64,000 nucleotides of DNA from an uncultured Lachnospiraceae bacterium (GTDB lineage: Bacteria; Bacillota; Clostridia; Lachnospirales; Lachnospiraceae), in assembly GCA_964483545.1 (NCBI GenBank), contig CAZACC010000001.1, forward strand, positions 5,883-69,882. Reading direction: 5' to 3'. Below the pieces are notes generated by a model. The model had not been told where the DNA came from, did not search any database, and saw nothing but the letters and a program-made list of their open reading frames with translations. Position numbers and translations under genes: made by a program. The stretch's first letter is position 1, and every line of letters begins with the position of its first letter. Positions 10,387 through 17,606 of this stretch are shown piece after piece.

Positions 10387-10497
10387 GAAATGGGGCATAT
10401 TGATTGAAAGTTAAATAAAGACAGTGTATGATTTAGCAAATGAAGGATATTGTGGATGATTATTAAATGGAATTTCACTTATGGAAGGGAGAGAGAA

Positions 10498-11700
10498 ATG
10501 AAGAAAATGAGAAAGAGAAGTATATTATTACTGACAGTCATGATGATATCACTGCTGGCCGGAAGTGTTACAGTTTATGCTGATACATCTGCAGATTTGG
10601 CGGCAGATGTGGTTGATGAAAAGGATTCAGCAGGTAATGCAATCATCTGTAAGACATCAGTGTCTGGCGAGAAGTATGCGGAAGATGTGTATTGGGCCGG
10701 TAACGACATGAGCATGAATGATTCCAAGATCGCCAATGATTTGATAGCTGTAGGTTATACACTATCGGTGAATGGTACTGAAATAGCAGGCAGTGCCCGT
10801 TCAGCCGGCTACAGTATCAGTCTGCAGGATGTGGAGGTAGCACATAATATCACAGTAGCAGGTAATATACTGAATATTGATTCAAATACAAAGGCAAAGG
10901 CAGTATATGCTGCGGGAAATATGATTACCTTCAGCGGTGAATGTGAATCATTTAATGCATCAGGTAATACAGTCATATTGAATGGTGTTGTAAATGGTGA
11001 TGCAAAAATCGATGCAAATGAAGTGACGATCGGACCGAATGCAGTAGTTACCGGAAAGCTGACGGTATCTGCAGCAGATGAAGCTACGATTCCTGATTCA
11101 GTAAAGATAGGTGAGTATGAGTATCATGACAGCCCGAATGTACCTGATGAAGACACTGTTGAAGCAGTTTCTAAGGGCGCAAGATTTGTACATAAGATTT
11201 TAAATCGTGTATATTGGGTTCCGGCTATGATTATTGTAGCATTGTTCTTCTGTCTGGTGATTCCGGGAGCAGTTGATGGTTCAGGTAAGATGCTTTTAAA
11301 GAAGCCGGTAGCGATGCCAATCACAGGTCTTGTTGCATTGTGTGCAATTCCGGTAGCACTAATTATTCTATGCATTACATTTATTGGATTGCCGCTTGCA
11401 GGACTGATTGCATTATTAGTAACAATTGCAACGATCTTTGCAGTTCCGTTTGCAGGAGCTTCAGCAGGAAGAATTGTTTTACCGAAGATGAACATATGGC
11501 TTTCTTCCATTATTGGATCGGCTGTATTAACGCTTGCCCTTGCAGTTCCGTTTATAGGAGGACTGATCAAGTTCTTGAGTATTCTCTATGTGCTTGGGTA
11601 TTTTATTCAGAAATGTTATGAGCAGATAAAGACTATCGGAAAAAAACCTGAACAGGAAATGCCTCAAGCGGCAGAAGAAGTTCAGGTAAATAAACAGTAA
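10498..11700 (+). CDS. membrane protein: signal peptide, beta-helix-like (bactofilin-like) repeat domain and C-terminal multi-TM domain
   Basis: Start trimmed to MKKMRKRSILLLTVMMISLLAGSVTVYA, preceded by GGAAGGGAGAG. Repeated xAGNxIxx strands occur (YWAGNDMSM, TVAGNILNI, YAAGNMITF, NASGNTVIL), followed by about 5-6 hydrophobic helices. Confidence 0.45.
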   Translation: MKKMRKRSILLLTVMMISLLAGSVTVYADTSADLAADVVDEKDSAGNAIICKTSVSGEKYAEDVYWAGNDMSMNDSKIANDLIAVGYTLSVNGTEIAGSARSAGYSISLQDVEVAHNITVAGNILNIDSNTKAKAVYAAGNMITFSGECESFNASGNTVILNGVVNGDAKIDANEVTIGPNAVVTGKLTVSAADEATIPDSVKIGEYEYHDSPNVPDEDTVEAVSKGARFVHKILNRVYWVPAMIIVALFFCLVIPGAVDGSGKMLLKKPVAMPITGLVALCAIPVALIILCITFIGLPLAGLIALLVTIATIFAVPFAGASAGRIVLPKMNIWLSSIIGSAVLTLALAVPFIGGLIKFLSILYVLGYFIQKCYEQIKTIGKKPEQEMPQAAEEVQVNKQ

Positions 11701-11706
11701 TTATTA

Positions 11707-12288
11707 TCACAGAAATGCTGGAGAAAGCACAATGCCAACCAGAAACGGTAGAATAATTCCAGAGACGATTTGTGCGATTGTATGACGCTTTAGTTTATAG
11801 CTTGATAAAAATACACAGACCAGCACAGGGATTCCGATTAAAAAAATCCATTGATGAAACATAATCAACATGGCTACGGGACCGGCCGAGCCGACGGCGT
11901 GACCACTTAGTTTAAAATGAAATACTTTACTGCTGATTAATATTACGAAACCGCAAATAAAGTAGGTCAGATAGATGAAAATGAGTTGTGGAGATTGCTG
12001 CAAGAATATGCTTGTAGCGAGTCCACATATATATCCTACTACAGACAGGATTATGGCAAGGTTGCGCTGACCATCACGTCCAGGAAACCATTTTTTCAGC
12101 GGTATCTGCAGTACATATGCCAGAGAGGGAAAAATACTAATAAAAGATACAGCCATAATATAATCCGATACATGTATAAAAATACCAGGAACAAAGACAA
12201 ATAAATAAGTAAATACCAGCAATGCTAATATAGGTGGAACTGTCAGTATACGTATGATTTTTGAAAGCAGTTCTTTTTTCATGTTCAT
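11707..12288 (-). CDS. small polytopic membrane protein, PAP2-like
   Basis: Hydrophobic 193-aa ORF. It carries KLSGHAVG (PSGH-like) and KRHTIAQIVSG (R..H...D/Q-like) motifs that weakly resemble the PAP2 phosphatase signature. Confidence 0.4.
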   Translation of the reverse strand: MNMKKELLSKIIRILTVPPILALLVFTYLFVFVPGIFIHVSDYIMAVSFISIFPSLAYVLQIPLKKWFPGRDGQRNLAIILSVVGYICGLATSIFLQQSPQLIFIYLTYFICGFVILISSKVFHFKLSGHAVGSAGPVAMLIMFHQWIFLIGIPVLVCVFLSSYKLKRHTIAQIVSGIILPFLVGIVLSPAFL

Positions 12289-12484
12289 TACCTCGCTTCA
12301 TGTAAAAGTTTTGAATAATACATCATGTAGTTTTCAATACTATGTTAGCAGACATTGATATGATTGTCAATTCTTTATTTTTATAAATATTGTGTCCAAA
12401 TCTGCTGGTTTTATGCGTACTGGACTTATATTTTTTAAATGGTATACTAAACCTATCATAGTGATAGAAAAGGAGGGTATCGAC

Positions 12485-12988
12485 ATGTATGATAAGCTGA
12501 CTCGCAGTGACATTCAGAAAATGGAGGAAGAGATCGAGCACAGAAAGGTAGTCGTCCGCCATGAATTGCTTGAGCACGTTAAGGTTGCAAGAGCACAGGG
12601 TGATCTGAGCGAGAACTTTGAGTATCATGCTGCCAAGAAAGAAAAAAATCAGAATGAAGGCAGAATCAGATTTCTGGAGAGGATGATTAAAACGGCCATT
12701 ATCGTAGAAGAAGAATCTCGCACAGATGAGGTGGGGATCAATAATACGGTAGAAGTTCTATTTGAAGAGGATCAGACAACGGAGAAGTTTCGGATTGTAA
12801 CGACAATGAGGCAGAACTCACTAAAAAATCTGATCAGTGTGGAATCACCAATGGGAAAAGCGTTAATGAAGCATAAAGTCGGTGATAAAGTACATATCCA
12901 AGTGAATGACCAATACGGATATGATGTGACCATTCAGTCCATTGATCAATTAGATGATGGCTCAGATGATGAAATAAGAAGCTTCTAA
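12485..12988 (+). CDS. greA: transcription elongation factor GreA
   Basis: Start trimmed to the ATG after AAAAGGAGGG. GreA hallmarks are present: ARAQGDLSENFEYHAAK, plus the C-terminal domain SVESPMGKALMKHKVGD. Confidence 0.9.
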   Translation: MYDKLTRSDIQKMEEEIEHRKVVVRHELLEHVKVARAQGDLSENFEYHAAKKEKNQNEGRIRFLERMIKTAIIVEEESRTDEVGINNTVEVLFEEDQTTEKFRIVTTMRQNSLKNLISVESPMGKALMKHKVGDKVHIQVNDQYGYDVTIQSIDQLDDGSDDEIRSF

Positions 12989-13058: not shown

Positions 13059-14201
13059 TTACATGATTTCCAAATAACTGCCGAGGTAACTGAACTGTTC
13101 ACTCATTTCATCAAGCTCACAAATCAGTTGAGTAAATTTGGGTGAATATACCGAGGTTTCCAGATCGAAATAGAACATAAATTCAAAATCTCTGTCCGGA
13201 AGAGGGCGACTCTCCAGCTTGACAAGATTAATTCCGAGAGCATAGAACCTAGATAAAACTTTATACAAAGAGCCGGGTTTGTGTCCGATAGTCATCATAA
13301 TCGATGTTCTATCTGCACCTGCATAGATCTCAAGTTTCTTCGTAATACAGATAAAGCGTGTGTAATTATTATCTGTATTTTGAATGGATTCACCGATGGA
13401 CTGCAGACCATATAGAACTGCACATTCATGAGAGGCAATGGCAGCAATGTCATTTCGTTCGGACTCTGCCACGAGCTTGGCAGCTGCCGCAGTATTTTCA
13501 CAGGCGGTTACTTTTACATCCTTTAACTCTTTTAGATAATCCGAACATTGTCCAATAGCCTGTTCATGTGTATAGATTTCTCGAATATCCTCTAATCTTG
13601 TGCCAGGCTTTACAAGCAGGCTGTGGTTAACCTTCAGACGGACACTGCGGACAATGCTGAAATGATATTTCATCATCAGGTCATAGATTGCATTGACAGA
13701 GCCAGCTGTACTGTTTTCTACAGGAAGCACACCATATTTACAAAGCCCTTTATCAATGGCTGAGAATACGCCTTCGAAATTGTTGAAATACATAATGTTA
13801 GGAATTTCAAAAATCTTCTCACAGGCATGCTGAGAGAATGCGCCCTCGACACCCTGACATGCAACAATACCATATGGTGGGAATACTTTATCCGTATTTT
13901 CAATGGCATTTGTAATTTTGTTCATCAGTGCGGTTGACGGATGAATCAGACTTTCTTCATAGGAGCGGCTGATGTCGAACATAAAGGAGTACATCATATA
14001 GACATAGGACCGCATGGTCTCATCAGTGTTTTCCATAATATCCTTTAATTTCTCCTGCACGTAGCCTCCGTCATAGAGTGGCATACCGTTTTTCTGCTTG
14101 TAATCAGCAATTTCTCCACATTTTTTCATACGACTGCTGACTAATTTGATTAATTCGTTGTCAATCTTTCCGATTTCTTCTCTCATATCCTTCATATCCA
14201 T
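13059..14201 (-). CDS. pheA: bifunctional chorismate mutase / prephenate dehydratase
   Basis: An N-terminal chorismate mutase helix (REEIGKIDNELIKLVSSRMK) is followed by a prephenate dehydratase domain (ACQGVEGAFSQ..VENSTAGSV) and a C-terminal ACT-like domain. Confidence 0.85.
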   Translation of the reverse strand: MDMKDMREEIGKIDNELIKLVSSRMKKCGEIADYKQKNGMPLYDGGYVQEKLKDIMENTDETMRSYVYMMYSFMFDISRSYEESLIHPSTALMNKITNAIENTDKVFPPYGIVACQGVEGAFSQHACEKIFEIPNIMYFNNFEGVFSAIDKGLCKYGVLPVENSTAGSVNAIYDLMMKYHFSIVRSVRLKVNHSLLVKPGTRLEDIREIYTHEQAIGQCSDYLKELKDVKVTACENTAAAAKLVAESERNDIAAIASHECAVLYGLQSIGESIQNTDNNYTRFICITKKLEIYAGADRTSIMMTIGHKPGSLYKVLSRFYALGINLVKLESRPLPDRDFEFMFYFDLETSVYSPKFTQLICELDEMSEQFSYLGSYLEIM

Positions 14202-14244
14202 TGTATGATCCTCCTTAGGTTTATAATATGTTATTATGCAAGCA

Positions 14245-15249
14245 TTACGAAGCTAGGGCTTTTTGTATCTTACGAACCTTTTCAGCTACCTTTGCAAACT
14301 GAGATGGTGTCAGTGACTGGGCTCCATCACACAAAGCCTTTGCTGGATTATTGTGAACCTCTATCATCAGCCCGTCAGCACCTGCTGCTACAGCAGCAAG
14401 CGCCATAGGTTCAACCATCCTTGCGATTCCAGTCGCATGACTCGGATCGACGACAATAGGTAGATGTGTCAGTTCTCTAAGTGCAGGAATTGCAGATAAG
14501 TCAAGAGTATTTCTTGTGTAGGTTTCAAAGGTTCTAATACCGCGTTCACAGAGAATGACTTGTTCATTACCGCCTGCCATAATGTACTCCGCACTCATCA
14601 ATAGCTCCTTTAATGTGTTAGCAAGCCCTCGCTTTAACAGAATGGGCTTTTTGATTTTGCCTAATTCCTTCAGCATTTCATGATTTTGCATATTGCGGGC
14701 ACCAACTTGAATAATGTCTACATTTTCAAATTTTGGAAGGTGATTGATGTTCATGATTTCAGTAATAATAGGCATACCTGTCTCCTTTTTAGCACCGAGC
14801 AGAAGATCAAGTCCTTCCGAACGCAGTCCTTGGAAGTCATAGGGAGAGGTTCTGGGTTTGTACGCTCCGCCTCTTAGGATGGTAGCACCAGCTGCCCTGA
14901 CTGCTTCAGCGACCTCACAGATTTGCTCATGGGATTCTACAGAGCAGGGACCTGCAATCATCTGAAAATGGCCCTGTCCAAGCAGCAGATCTCCGACCTG
15001 AATAATGGTATCCTCTGGGTGGAACTTCCGGTTGGAACTTTTGAAAGGGTCACTGACTCTCTTGACGGATTCTACAATGTCCAGACTTTCAATCAGTTCC
15101 ATATCCATTTTACCAGTATCTCCAATTAATCCAAAGACGGAGCAGTATTCTCCTTCGGATTCATGGACGCTGATTCCTTGATTCTCAATCCATTCCTTTA
15201 AATGCGTTTTCTGTCCTTCATCAATTCCTTGTTTTATAACAATGATCAT
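14245..15249 (-). CDS. aroF: 3-deoxy-7-phosphoheptulonate (DAHP) synthase, type I-beta with N-terminal regulatory domain
   Basis: AGPCSVES, RGGAYKPRTSPYDFQG and DPSHATG motifs; 334 aa. Confidence 0.9.
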   Translation of the reverse strand: MIIVIKQGIDEGQKTHLKEWIENQGISVHESEGEYCSVFGLIGDTGKMDMELIESLDIVESVKRVSDPFKSSNRKFHPEDTIIQVGDLLLGQGHFQMIAGPCSVESHEQICEVAEAVRAAGATILRGGAYKPRTSPYDFQGLRSEGLDLLLGAKKETGMPIITEIMNINHLPKFENVDIIQVGARNMQNHEMLKELGKIKKPILLKRGLANTLKELLMSAEYIMAGGNEQVILCERGIRTFETYTRNTLDLSAIPALRELTHLPIVVDPSHATGIARMVEPMALAAVAAGADGLMIEVHNNPAKALCDGAQSLTPSQFAKVAEKVRKIQKALAS

Positions 15250-15306
15250 GTGTGTCTCCTCCTTTTGATTGTCTGCGGGGTTTTCATATCGACATCATTA
15301 TGATAC

Positions 15307-15340
15307 AAAAAAGGCCCCACAGTGATTTACACTGCGAGGC
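15307..15340 (-). terminator. intrinsic terminator (attenuator) in the aroF leader
   Basis: The minus-strand RNA is GCCUCGCAGUG-UAAAU-CACUGUGGGGC followed by C plus U6. The stem is 11 bp, including 2 G-U pairs. It lies 57 nt upstream of the aroF ATG. Confidence 0.6.
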
Positions 15341-15366
15341 TCCTATAAACAATGATTATTTCATTC

Positions 15367-15480
15367 CTATACGGACGCTCTATTTTCCACAGCACAAATC
15401 ACCTTTTCGTCAAAGCTACTAAAGCTAAAGCCGAAAAAGTAAAAGAAAAAGTATGCTGCTGAAAATAAGAATTCTCTCAT
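15367..15480 (-). CDS. Phe-rich leader peptide (37 aa) of the aroF-pheA operon
   Basis: GGAGG RBS followed by ATG. The peptide is MREFLFSAAYFFFYFFGFSFSSFDEKVICAVENRASV*, with 10 Phe and 2 Tyr within residues 4-23. The terminator follows about 25 nt after the stop. Confidence 0.55.
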   Translation of the reverse strand: MREFLFSAAYFFFYFFGFSFSSFDEKVICAVENRASV

Positions 15481-15506
15481 CGTTTTCCTCCAAGTACATT
15501 TTCGTC

Positions 15507-15535
15507 ATTCTAACACTGAAAATATTGAATGTCAA
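15507..15535 (-). promoter_or_regulatory. sigma-A-type promoter for the aroF leader transcript
   Basis: The minus strand reads TTGACA, a 17-nt spacer, then TAGAAT, with a TG at the extended -10 position. Confidence 0.5.
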
Positions 15536-15552
15536 TGTCAGATTATGGGTAT

Positions 15553-15581
15553 TTGATAAATGAGTTCGTTTTTGCTATACT
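15553..15581 (+). promoter_or_regulatory. sigma-A-type promoter for the ABC-F gene
   Basis: TTGATA, a 17-nt spacer, then TATACT, about 30 nt upstream of the ATG at 15612. Confidence 0.45.
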
Positions 15582-15611
15582 ACTAGGGACGAAGAAGATA
15601 GAGGTACAGAA

Positions 15612-17606
15612 ATGTTATATCAGATATGTAATGGGGCAGTACGCTTTGCGGCTGAGACCATTTTAGAAAATGTAAATTTTGAGATTAGAAATACAGAAAA
15701 GATTGCCGTAGTCGGCAGAAACGGCAGTGGAAAGACAACACTGCTTAAATTGATTTCGGGGGAAGTAGACCTGTCAAAAAGAGACTCGGATGAGGATATG
15801 TCTATCTCACGTGCAGGGAATCCCACAATTGGTTATTTGAAACAGCTGACATTCGAGGATGAGAATCTAACCTTGGATGCGGAGATTCGGAAGGCTTTTG
15901 CTCCGATTTTAAGCATGAAGGAGAGACTGGCTGAGCTGGTAGAAGAAATGGAAACAGATGCAACAGAGAAGAAAGTTGAGGAATATACAGCACTCGAAGA
16001 AAAATTCAAGGATCTTGGCGGTTATTATTATGAAAAAGAGTATGATACAATGCTTCGCAGCTTTCGGTTCGATCTGTCAGATAAAGAGAAGAAGCTAAGC
16101 GAGTTCTCGGGAGGACAGAGAACAAAACTGGCATTTATTAAGCTGCTGCTTAGCAAGCCAGATATTCTGCTTTTGGATGAGCCAACCAATCATTTAGATA
16201 TTTCTACGATAGAGTGGTTGGAAAAATATATGCAGAACTATAATCGTGCTGTTGTAATCGTATCTCATGATCGTATGTTTCTAGATAAGGTCGTAGATGT
16301 AGTATACGAAATTGAACATCAGAAGGTGAAACGATATGTGGGTAACTATTCTGCTTTCATGAAGCAGAAACGTCAGAATTATGATAAGCAAATGAAGGGT
16401 TATATCGCCCAGAAGAAGGAAATCGCAAGGCTAGAAGCAATTGTGGAGAAATTCAAGAATAAACCGACCAAGGTTGCCATGACACGCTCCAAACTCAAGC
16501 AGATTGAGCATATGGAAATCATAGAGGCGCCTGATCGTTATGATAATCAGACATTCCATGCGAGCTTTGAGCCAGGAAAAGAGACAGGCAAAGATGTCCT
16601 GCTGGTAACAGATCTGATCATCGGATATGATCAGCCGCTTGCTAAGGTATCATTGAACGTTAAACGGGGTCAGAAGCTAGGAATCATAGGCGGCAATGGA
16701 ATCGGAAAGTCAACACTGCTCAAGACACTGGTTGGTATGATAGAACCGCTGTCAGGCTCATATCACTACGGAGACCGTGTAGAGGTGGGTTATTTTTATC
16801 AGCAGATGGCTCAGTATTCCAGTGAGAAGACAGTGTTGGATGAATTTTGGGATGAATTTCCGACCCTGATGCAGACTGAGGTCAGAAACTGTCTTGGAGC
16901 ATTTTTGTTTAGTGGGGATGATGTGTTTAAGAAGGTTAGCATGCTTTCTGGCGGAGAACGAGTGCGTCTTGCATTGGCCAAGATCTTTAAAAGAAAACCA
17001 AATTTTTTGATACTGGATGAGCCGACGAACCATATGGATATTGTGGGGAAAGAGACGTTGGAGTCCATGCTAAAGGATTTTTTGGGAACAGTCATTTTTA
17101 TTTCTCATGACCGCTATTTCATCAAGCAGGTATCAGATATTCTGCTTGTGATGGATAAGAACAAGGATATACATGGAGAAATGCTTGGAGAATATAAGCT
17201 GTATCCATTTGGATATGAACAATACATAGAGGAGACAGAGGCAGCTACAGTGAAAGCAGAGGCATCCAGTCAAAATCAAGACGTTAAGATAGAGAAAAAG
17301 AGAATGGTCGGAATTTCTTTTGGTAAGTCGGAGACTGAGGTAGATACAGCGGAAGCAGATAGCAAATATTATAATCCAGGAAAAGTACAATCAAAACTAG
17401 AGCGGAAAATTAAAAGAAAAGAAGAACAGCTAGAGGAATGCGAGACAGAGTTACAGCAACTGAAGGAAGACCTCCAGAATCCAGAATTGGTTAGCGATTA
17501 TGTACGATTACAAGAGATTCAGAAGGAAATTGATGAGCGAGAGGAACAGTTGCTGGATTTGATGTCTGAATGGGATGAACTACAGTCATTGTTAGCAAAA
17601 TGCTAA
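15612..17606 (+). CDS. ABC-F family ATPase (translation-associated) with C-terminal coiled-coil extension
   Basis: Two ABC cassettes without TM domains: GRNGSGKTT/LSGGQRTKL and GGNGIGKST/LSGGERVRL. An inter-domain linker is present, and the tail is E/K/Q-rich. Confidence 0.9.
   Translation: MLYQICNGAVRFAAETILENVNFEIRNTEKIAVVGRNGSGKTTLLKLISGEVDLSKRDSDEDMSISRAGNPTIGYLKQLTFEDENLTLDAEIRKAFAPILSMKERLAELVEEMETDATEKKVEEYTALEEKFKDLGGYYYEKEYDTMLRSFRFDLSDKEKKLSEFSGGQRTKLAFIKLLLSKPDILLLDEPTNHLDISTIEWLEKYMQNYNRAVVIVSHDRMFLDKVVDVVYEIEHQKVKRYVGNYSAFMKQKRQNYDKQMKGYIAQKKEIARLEAIVEKFKNKPTKVAMTRSKLKQIEHMEIIEAPDRYDNQTFHASFEPGKETGKDVLLVTDLIIGYDQPLAKVSLNVKRGQKLGIIGGNGIGKSTLLKTLVGMIEPLSGSYHYGDRVEVGYFYQQMAQYSSEKTVLDEFWDEFPTLMQTEVRNCLGAFLFSGDDVFKKVSMLSGGERVRLALAKIFKRKPNFLILDEPTNHMDIVGKETLESMLKDFLGTVIFISHDRYFIKQVSDILLVMDKNKDIHGEMLGEYKLYPFGYEQYIEETEAATVKAEASSQNQDVKIEKKRMVGISFGKSETEVDTAEADSKYYNPGKVQSKLERKIKRKEEQLEECETELQQLKEDLQNPELVSDYVRLQEIQKEIDEREEQLLDLMSEWDELQSLLAKC

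Follow-up and report, generated by a model that had tools for sequence, protein, structure and literature searches.

The aroF-pheA operon of an uncultured Lachnospiraceae bacterium raises the question whether its transcription is governed by translation of a short, phenylalanine (Phe)-rich open reading frame (ORF) that precedes it. The operon lies on a stretch of 64,000 nucleotides (nt) of contig CAZACC010000001.1 (assembly GCA_964483545.1), which was analysed as a whole and is called the window below. Leader-peptide attenuation has long been regarded as a feature of proteobacteria and actinobacteria. A preliminary description of this DNA had read the sequence upstream of aroF-pheA as a ribosome-mediated attenuator in a Firmicute. 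The computational tests described here support the core of that reading, and folding models together with comparisons of related loci make it very probable that the leader acts as a ribosome-mediated (leader-peptide) transcription attenuator that would sense the charging of Phe-tRNA (and of tyrosine (Tyr)-tRNA).

The leader and its alternative hairpins

The attenuator and the operon all lie on the minus strand, and coordinates are window positions. The features are as follows.

15507 to 15535, minus strand: sigma-70-type promoter, TTGACA (15535-15530), 17-nt spacer, TAGAAT (15512-15507)
15487 to 15491, minus strand: Shine-Dalgarno (SD) sequence GGAGG, 6 nt ahead of the leader ATG
15367 to 15480, minus strand: ORF of the leader peptide, 37 codons and a UAG stop, MREFLFSAAYFFFYFFGFSFSSFDEKVICAVENRASV; ATG at 15480, stop at 15369-15367
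15433 to 15453, minus strand: core regulatory codons 10-16 (Y-F-F-F-Y-F-F), the presumed stall site
15432 to 15468, minus strand: region 1, 5' arm of the long 1:2 hairpin in the minimum free energy (MFE) fold, UUAUUUUC-AGCAGCAUA ... UUACUUUUUCG, overlapping the F/Y codons
15380 to 15409, minus strand: region 2, 3' arm of the 1:2 hairpin, CGAAAAGGUGA..UGUGCUGU.GGAAAAUAG, within the 3' part of the leader ORF
15388 to 15403, minus strand: 5' strand of the antiterminator, GGUGAUUUGUGCUGUG, which contains CUGUGG (15392-15387)
15321 to 15336, minus strand: 3' strand of the antiterminator, CGCAGUGUAAAUCACU, consisting of the inner 5'-arm part of the terminator, its loop and the first 4 nt of its 3' arm
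15345 to 15371, minus strand: spacer hairpin between region 2 and the terminator, holding the leader stop codon and enclosed by the antiterminator; this segment is variable in relatives
15307 to 15340, minus strand: intrinsic terminator, 11-bp stem (15340-15330 with 15324-15314), 5-nt loop, C + U6 at 15313-15307; hairpin about -19.8 kcal/mol
14245 to 15249, minus strand: aroF, 3-deoxy-7-phosphoheptulonate (DAHP) synthase with an N-terminal ferredoxin-like regulatory domain (PF00793, 3e-78; PF18152, FXD domain, 2e-19)
13059 to 14201, minus strand: pheA, bifunctional chorismate mutase/prephenate dehydratase (CM-PDT) with an ACT domain (PF00800, PF01817)

In a sequence scan the promoter matched 11 of the 12 consensus positions and carried a TG extension in its spacer, which places the probable start of transcription near 15500. 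This promoter, the GGAGG and the 37-codon ORF with 10 Phe and 2 Tyr codons among residues 4-23 were all found on the minus strand as had been claimed for them. Phe is encoded at residues 4, 6, 11, 12, 13, 15, 16, 18, 20 and 23, Tyr at residues 10 and 14. Stretches of eight residues with at least six F or Y occur exclusively within the leader ORF when all six frames of the 64-kb window are considered, and the leader folds with a z-score of -4.8 relative to shuffled sequences. The terminator hairpin, GCCUCGCAGUG-UAAAU-CACUGUGGGGC (15340-15314), with 7 of its 11 base pairs being G-C, starts 26 nt past the leader stop; the 11-bp stem with its C-U6 tail about 25 nt beyond the ORF had thus been described correctly. 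The aroF ribosome-binding site (RBS), at about 15262-15258 ahead of the ATG at 15249, lies roughly 45-52 nt past the terminator, a trivial difference from the 57 nt given earlier.

A common plan for the 1:2 hairpin was obtained by folding the window leader and 14 relatives. In this family region 1 consists of the 'F-A-A-x-Y' segment and the F/Y codons (UUUGCAGCNGNAUAC UUU UAC UUU ...) and region 2 of AAAGUAAAAGUGAUUUNUGCUGCAAA, and the F/Y codons are enclosed by the outer helix UUUGCAGC:GCUGCAAA (GCAGC:GCUGC). Region 2 can also pair with the terminator. In the window this antiterminator (2:3) is a continuous 16-bp helix (15403-15388 with 15336-15321). Within the terminator it occupies the 5' arm's inner 7 nt, all of the loop and 4 nt of the 3' arm. 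A lower extension of 7 bp, AGAGCGUCC (15381-15373) with GGAGCCU (15343-15337), takes in the outer 4 nt of the 5' arm. The duplex amounts to -17.7 kcal/mol for the core and -23.4 kcal/mol with the extension, and the whole antiterminator structure to -27.3 to -30.1 kcal/mol in transcripts shortened at the 3' end. The hexamer CUGUGG, earlier put forward as the antiterminating segment, does lie within the antiterminator strand, but the actual helix, 16 bp plus the 7-bp extension, is far longer than the one envisaged.

Folding with the leader codons masked had been proposed as a check on the switch. Applied to the complete leader it did not discriminate, equilibrium folding always giving the terminator, and transcripts without the end of the 3' arm were therefore folded instead. 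In a window transcript ending 7 nt short of the terminator 3'-arm end, an antiterminator appeared that depended on the stall. With a ribosome masked at codons 12-16, the terminator 5' arm was paired over its full 11 nt upstream with region 2 (-27 to -30 kcal/mol); with a ribosome masked at the stop codon, upstream pairing was weak (-2.7 kcal/mol) before completion of the 3' arm; and with no ribosome, region 2 remained paired with region 1. The full-length transcript yielded the terminator both with a ribosome at the stop and with none. Averaged over 66 leaders, including those of the relatives described below, the fraction of the 5' arm sequestered was 0.72 with a stalled ribosome, 0.34 with a ribosome at the stop and 0.51 with no ribosome.

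Conservation, family searches and operon content

A scan of one genome per species yielded 80 aroF loci with protein identities of 62-77 %, almost all of them from Clostridia (Oscillospiraceae, Acutalibacteraceae, Lachnospiraceae and 'Clostridiales' metagenome-assembled genomes (MAGs)). Together with the window, 67 of these loci supplied a set of 68 leaders, in which a short ORF containing an F/Y run lies directly 5' of aroF, with the consensus M-K-N-x-x-F-A-A-E-Y-F-Y-F-Y-F. Of the 68 leaders, 66 were found to have an ATG preceded by an SD-like motif in the frame of the F/Y run, compared to 2 and 2 in the other frames, so that the mini-ORF proved to be conserved in relatives, a point on which the preliminary description had made its reading depend. 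Phe makes up 19 % and Tyr 15 % of the leader residues (34 % together), and there is hardly any Trp. In 66/68 leaders, too, aroF is preceded by a strong hairpin with a U tract, and the complete architecture (mini-ORF with SD and ATG, F/Y run, terminator and the same RNA plan) is present in about 65 of the 80 aroF loci.

The leader peptides range from 16 to 47 amino acids (aa) and their C-termini vary freely. Among 66 leaders, 27 have the stop codon after region 2, 12 have it within region 2 and 27 have it no more than 15 nt ahead of region 2; none has it further away. A terminating ribosome would therefore always block the antiterminator. In the window leader the ribosome translates through region 2 before reaching the stop. 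Conservation of the peptide tail 'KVKV..AAxN' is attributed to the RNA pairing of region 2. Indeed, in relatives with a short ORF, in which the stop lies in the hairpin loop, the region 2 segment is conserved yet untranslated.

RNAalifold recovered the terminator as the sole structure on the MAFFT alignment. The other helices were missed because the sequences are out of register with one another in the repetitive GCAGCAGC and UACUUU segments, and per-sequence duplex energies, with cognate compared to non-cognate partners, were therefore used instead. Cognate 1:2 duplexes averaged -24.7 kcal/mol and non-cognate ones -17.8 kcal/mol. For region 2 with the terminator the cognate pairs averaged -18.2 kcal/mol and the non-cognate pairs -13.4 kcal/mol, about 4.8 better for the cognate pairs (Wilcoxon p = 7e-12, and about 1e-11 in both directions). 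The median antiterminator duplex in the relatives was -18.2 kcal/mol, with z = -2.8 relative to shuffled region 2 and p <= 0.05 in 47 of 66 leaders. The region 2 complement follows the loop of its own terminator, as in GUGAAUU:AAUUCAC (L014), GUUUCACUG:CAGUGAAAC (L048), GGCAUUUUUGC:GCAAAGAUGCC (L057) and GUGAUUU:AAAUCAC (window). A structure that competes with the terminator, for which a search had been recommended, is thus present and specific to each locus (p ~1e-11).

Pairing was also scored on A1, a MAFFT alignment built without fitting to the antiterminator helix. The terminator is 88.7 % paired on A1 with 79 double-change (compensatory) cells, and none of 500 shuffles equalled that. The outer 1:2 helix is 68.9 % paired, compared to 32-56 % in slid controls, and the antiterminator helix 72.9 %, compared to 32-53 % in slid registers. 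The covariation score of the antiterminator was 0.204 against 0.159 for shuffles, and 0/500 shuffles attained 0.204.

A covariance model, R1, was built from 32 leaders. It gave a single match in the window, at 15306-15469 of the minus strand (96.5 bits, E = 1.5e-18), and matched about 65 of the 80 loci, always immediately 5' of aroF and in the orientation of aroF. A DNA pattern scan with gaps allowed returned at least 120 pattern matches; 80 loci were scored with R1, which confirmed 12 of them, 11 from Clostridia MAGs and one from a Pseudoflavonifractor isolate. With a narrower leader-peptide alignment as query only Candidatus (Ca.) Fimenecus-like relatives were retrieved. A leader peptide of 28 aa, MKTLNFAAEYFYFSFYFTKSKACFTAEK, is shared with 100 % identity by 11 species-level genomes from Ca. 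Fimenecus and related Clostridia MAGs (L081-L091, positions 2501-2584 in each), an identity that is unusually strict for a leader peptide.

The exact AroF protein of the window occurs in metagenome-assembled contigs only. Of 6 such contigs, 5 have the 362-bp intergenic region in identical form, and the leader is not called as a gene. A metagenome strain variant (L110) shows three differences, at window positions 15418, 15417 and 15411, all apical in the 1:2 hairpin. These change AGU to AGC (synonymous), AGC to GGC (Ser to Gly) and GAC to AAC (Asp to Asn), and the switching helices are unaffected.

Searches for known RNA families were negative. Rfam 15 at gathering scores matched no family in the whole 64-kb window (no riboswitch, T-box, tRNA-like element or rRNA). 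Among the curated families of Rfam 15 are the Phe_leader of enterobacteria (RF01859) and the leu/phe leader of Lactococcus (RF01743). A permissive Rfam scan of positions 14000-17000 (E <= 10) gave one weak match in the leader and six chance-level matches elsewhere. The trpB motif (RF04312; Narunsky et al. 2024) scored 22.7 bits in the leader (E = 4.8), below its gathering score of 59, and the match covers mostly the terminator hairpin. The T-box leader (RF00230) gave no match in either Rfam scan, in agreement with the earlier remark that the leader lacks a T-box. By these two scans both a T-box and the leader families curated in Rfam are excluded.

The relatives differ from the window in the genes that follow aroF. 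Their operons read aroF-tyrA-aroB-aroA in 55 loci and aroF-aroB-aroA in 8 (e.g. L002, 4002-6984, and L054, 4017-6334), and pheA was seen downstream of aroF in none of the 80 relative loci. The Phe:Tyr ratio was therefore compared against the tyrA and aroB contexts. The ratio F/(F+Y) of the leader is 0.53 with tyrA, 0.72 with aroF-aroB and 0.83 in the window with aroF-pheA, and the tyrA and aroB groups differ with p = 8e-5 in a Mann-Whitney test that ignores phylogeny. Judged from these sequences, the ratio is in keeping with a sensor in which the mix of codons is adjusted to the product of the operon. At two loci (L024, 7-336, and L038, 2083-2931) a pheA-like gene lies directly 5' of aroF with no leader between them, so that any attenuator there would be upstream of pheA, beyond the sequence examined.

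Proposed mechanism and competing explanations

In the mechanism proposed, transcription would begin near 15500 and the leader RNA could form the 1:2 hairpin and then, downstream, the terminator (3:4). The 5' arm of 1:2 would consist of the Phe/Tyr codons and the preceding 'FSAA' codons. When Phe is plentiful and its tRNA (as well as that for Tyr) charged, the ribosome would pass region 2 and reach the UAG stop, leaving region 2 unavailable. With an untranslated leader 1:2 would remain closed, again making region 2 unavailable. In either case the terminator would form and transcription would end at the U6 before aroF. When Phe is scarce, the ribosome would stall in the Y-F-F-F-Y-F-F run and occupy region 1. 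The freed region 2 (GGUGAUUUGUGCUGUG) could then pair with the 5' arm and loop of the nascent terminator, and if this antiterminator is made before the 3' arm is completed, RNA polymerase would continue into aroF-pheA. The elements that characterize this class of attenuator were all found by computational and comparative analysis: an ORF with SD and start codon, a cluster of cognate codons, an intrinsic terminator, a 2:3 pairing exclusive of 1:2, and the placement of the stop codon.

Several observations weigh against this reading. The complete leader forms the terminator at equilibrium under every ribosome mask, the terminator state having -31.3 kcal/mol and the antiterminator state -27.5 kcal/mol, and read-through would therefore hinge on a kinetic advantage of the antiterminator. 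Such a preference for the terminator is usual in attenuators, whose control is kinetic; the trp leader of E. coli likewise has the terminator as its stabler hairpin. MFE modelling with a stalled ribosome sequestered at least 70 % of the 5' arm in only about 58 % of the leaders. Six of the 16 base pairs of the window antiterminator are G-U pairs. Alignment-based covariation is modest for both the antiterminator and the outer 1:2 helix, partly because the register is ambiguous in the repetitive segments named above. The related loci are phylogenetically non-independent, which makes p-values such as those of the duplex comparison optimistic, and the host organism is known from metagenome assemblies only. 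By analogy with the aroR leader of Corynebacterium glutamicum, where only Phe limitation acted, the Tyr codons might or might not matter.

Firmicutes often regulate aromatic genes by means of RNA-binding factors, T-boxes and TRAP being examples, and the same switch could be operated in trans by a factor that binds 1:2 (an RNA-binding protein, a small-molecule ligand or uncharged tRNA), the mini-ORF being incidental. In favour of this, the 1:2 hairpin is long, stable and conserved, and the leader weakly resembles the trpB motif, below threshold (22.7 bits, with a gathering score of 59) and mostly on the terminator. An incidental ORF, however, is hard to combine with the start codon and SD sequence being kept in the F/Y frame of nearly all leaders, with a stop that is always placed to cover region 2, and with an F/Y ratio that tracks the end product of the operon. 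Neither a T-box nor any other Rfam family matched, and the leader has no conserved unpaired block typical of a ligand pocket, its conservation being accounted for by codons and pairing. Control by a trans-acting factor is therefore very unlikely.

Region 2 would be released by a stall of any kind over region 1, and leaders of the erm and ABC-F type operate in this way, so the element might report general translation speed or ribosome availability, under antibiotics or stringent stress, rather than the charging of Phe-tRNA and Tyr-tRNA in particular. This is highly improbable in view of the composition of the leaders: a third of their residues are F or Y, the run is unique in the 64-kb window, and the genes downstream make exactly Phe and Tyr. 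The change of the F/Y ratio with tyrA or pheA in the operon argues against a non-specific translation sensor as it does against an incidental ORF.

The leader has a strong promoter of its own, an SD sequence and a terminator, and might be a gene in its own right, encoding a functional small hydrophobic protein, or else giving an independent small RNA when terminated by an ordinary terminator. The 28-aa peptide shared by the 11 Ca. Fimenecus species-level genomes would suit a protein. Against these possibilities stand the wide range of peptide lengths with variable C-termini, the survival of the C-terminal 'motif' as untranslated RNA in members with a short ORF, the fixed position of the element immediately 5' of aroF in the same orientation and the locus-specific helix that competes with the terminator. 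The probability left to these possibilities is very slight. A chance neighbourhood of a U-rich ORF and an ordinary hairpin in an AT-rich intergenic region might be suspected in a window of 40 % G+C in which simple promoter and terminator scans give as many sites overall as in shuffled sequence, but it is effectively refuted, and its probability is close to nil, by the conservation data, the element being kept in roughly 65 of the 80 loci, at an aroF identity of merely 62-77 %, and recognized by the covariance model at E = 1.5e-18, and also by the uniqueness of the F/Y run and the fold z-score of -4.8.

The attenuation model may have an evolutionary side. It is tentatively proposed, with slightly more doubt than confidence, that one attenuator scaffold has been re-programmed, its Phe:Tyr ratio following the operon product (near 1:1 in aroF-tyrA operons, rich in Phe in aroF-aroB operons and 10:2 in the window), that each F-to-Y swap (UUY to UAY) would need compensation in region 2, and that this is combined with an antiterminator running through the terminator loop into the 3' arm.

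Known attenuators, surroundings and significance

Leaders of this general type have been predicted before. Two motifs with F/Y-rich ORFs, uORF-12 and uORF-13, were described as 'aromatic amino acid attenuators' 5' of aroF or tyrA in Firmicutes (Stav et al. 2019, BMC Microbiol 19:66; PMC6429828). According to the passages on uORF-13 in that article, the motif is represented by 336 unique sequences from Firmicutes (Clostridiales, Thermoanaerobacterales, Negativicutes, Bacillales) and metagenomes, and about half of them lie 5' of aroF (3-deoxy-7-phosphoheptulonate synthase), tyrA being the gene that follows in the operon. These passages describe a short ORF that has an RBS and encodes a conserved F-Y-F within the P1 loop, with a terminator stem after it, and propose a trp-like attenuation; the class, published in 2019, is a prediction only (PMC6429828). 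Its alignment has a C. novyi sequence as seed (NC_008593.1, 2309418-2308872) and is absent from Rfam 15. The window family likewise lies 5' of aroF in Clostridia, with F/Y codons within the outer helix and a terminator after it, and set beside the verbal description it fits the definition of uORF-13 point by point. It differs in that the operon of the window is aroF-pheA and not aroF-tyrA, and in that its leader is unusually Phe-rich (10 F, 2 Y). The descriptive passages on uORF-13 make no mention of an antiterminator reaching into the terminator loop or of re-programming of the F:Y ratio. A main-text literature search found no other paper that uses the names uORF-12 or uORF-13. The novelty for Firmicutes assumed in the preliminary description was overstated, since F/Y-rich uORF attenuators 5' of aroF had already been reported (PMC6429828, in the passages cited). 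The window element is a further instance of an already predicted kind of element and not a new kind. What is added here is the explicit locus-specific antiterminator, the rule for the stop codon, the link between the F:Y ratio and the operon, and the covariance model.

Experimental evidence is on record for the aroR leader of C. glutamicum, a Phe-Tyr-Phe leader 5' of the DAHP synthase aroF operon that is subject to ribosome-mediated attenuation (Neshat et al. 2014, as summarised in PMC11802643). According to that summary transcription rose under Phe limitation and Tyr availability was without effect (PMC11802643). This leader belongs to the Actinobacteria and has a single F-Y-F, unlike the run of 7-12 aromatic codons in the window family, and it was stated to be structurally and phylogenetically distinct from uORF-12 and uORF-13 in the relevant passage of Stav et al. 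(PMC6429828). In Acholeplasma a uORF with Phe codons beside an intrinsic terminator, uORFC-13-1, occurs exclusively 5' of aroF (Brewer et al. 2021, PMC8632094). It differs in being restricted to Acholeplasma and environmental sequences, with 24 representatives, and in having a U run that encodes at least one Phe (PMC8632094). Premature termination has furthermore been detected in the aroF 5' untranslated region of Clostridioides difficile, with the riboregulator left unassigned (Fuchs et al. 2021).

The enterobacterial attenuators of pheA (pheL), pheST (pheM) and trp resemble the window leader in having an ORF with cognate codons, the 1:2, 2:3 and 3:4 pairings and a terminator before the first gene, and in the case of pheL the regulated gene is pheA (CM-PDT), as in the window. 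However, no homology in sequence or structure was detected (no Rfam match at E <= 10). The window furthermore differs in that the first gene encodes the common-pathway DAHP synthase, in that Phe and Tyr codons are mixed, in that the regulatory codons form most of the 5' arm of 1:2, and in that the antiterminator also takes the terminator loop and the start of the 3' arm.

The surroundings of the operon can be described briefly. The gene layout of metagenome contigs shows pheA as the second and last gene of the operon, followed by a convergent greA. Upstream, a promoter-like TTGATA-17-TATACT with a TG extension (15553-15581, plus strand) stands back-to-back with the leader promoter, and the 362-bp intergenic region thus probably holds two divergent promoters. 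This site faces a divergent gene at 15612-17606 (plus strand) for a 664-aa ABC-F-type ATPase (ABC_tran x2, ABC_tran_Xtn, ABC_tran_CTD). Three ORFs near the operon, at 10450-11700 (plus strand, 416 aa), 11707-12288 (minus strand, 193 aa) and 12323-12628 (minus strand, 101 aa), gave no Pfam match at E <= 1e-3.

The predicted attenuator of the window does not overturn current understanding, and specialists are unlikely to be surprised by it. It is a clear instance of leader-peptide attenuation in Clostridia, shared by about 65 related aroF loci, and it provides a model with defined 1:2, 2:3 and 3:4 pairings for a class known until now from a prediction in supplementary text only. It also shows a small ORF that is missed by gene callers in gut-microbiome assemblies. 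The locus offers clean mutations for testing, in the start codon, in the F/Y codons and in the helix 15403-15388 : 15336-15321. By means of such a leader, entry into the shikimate pathway would be coupled to the charging of tRNA-Phe and tRNA-Tyr in abundant gut anaerobes.

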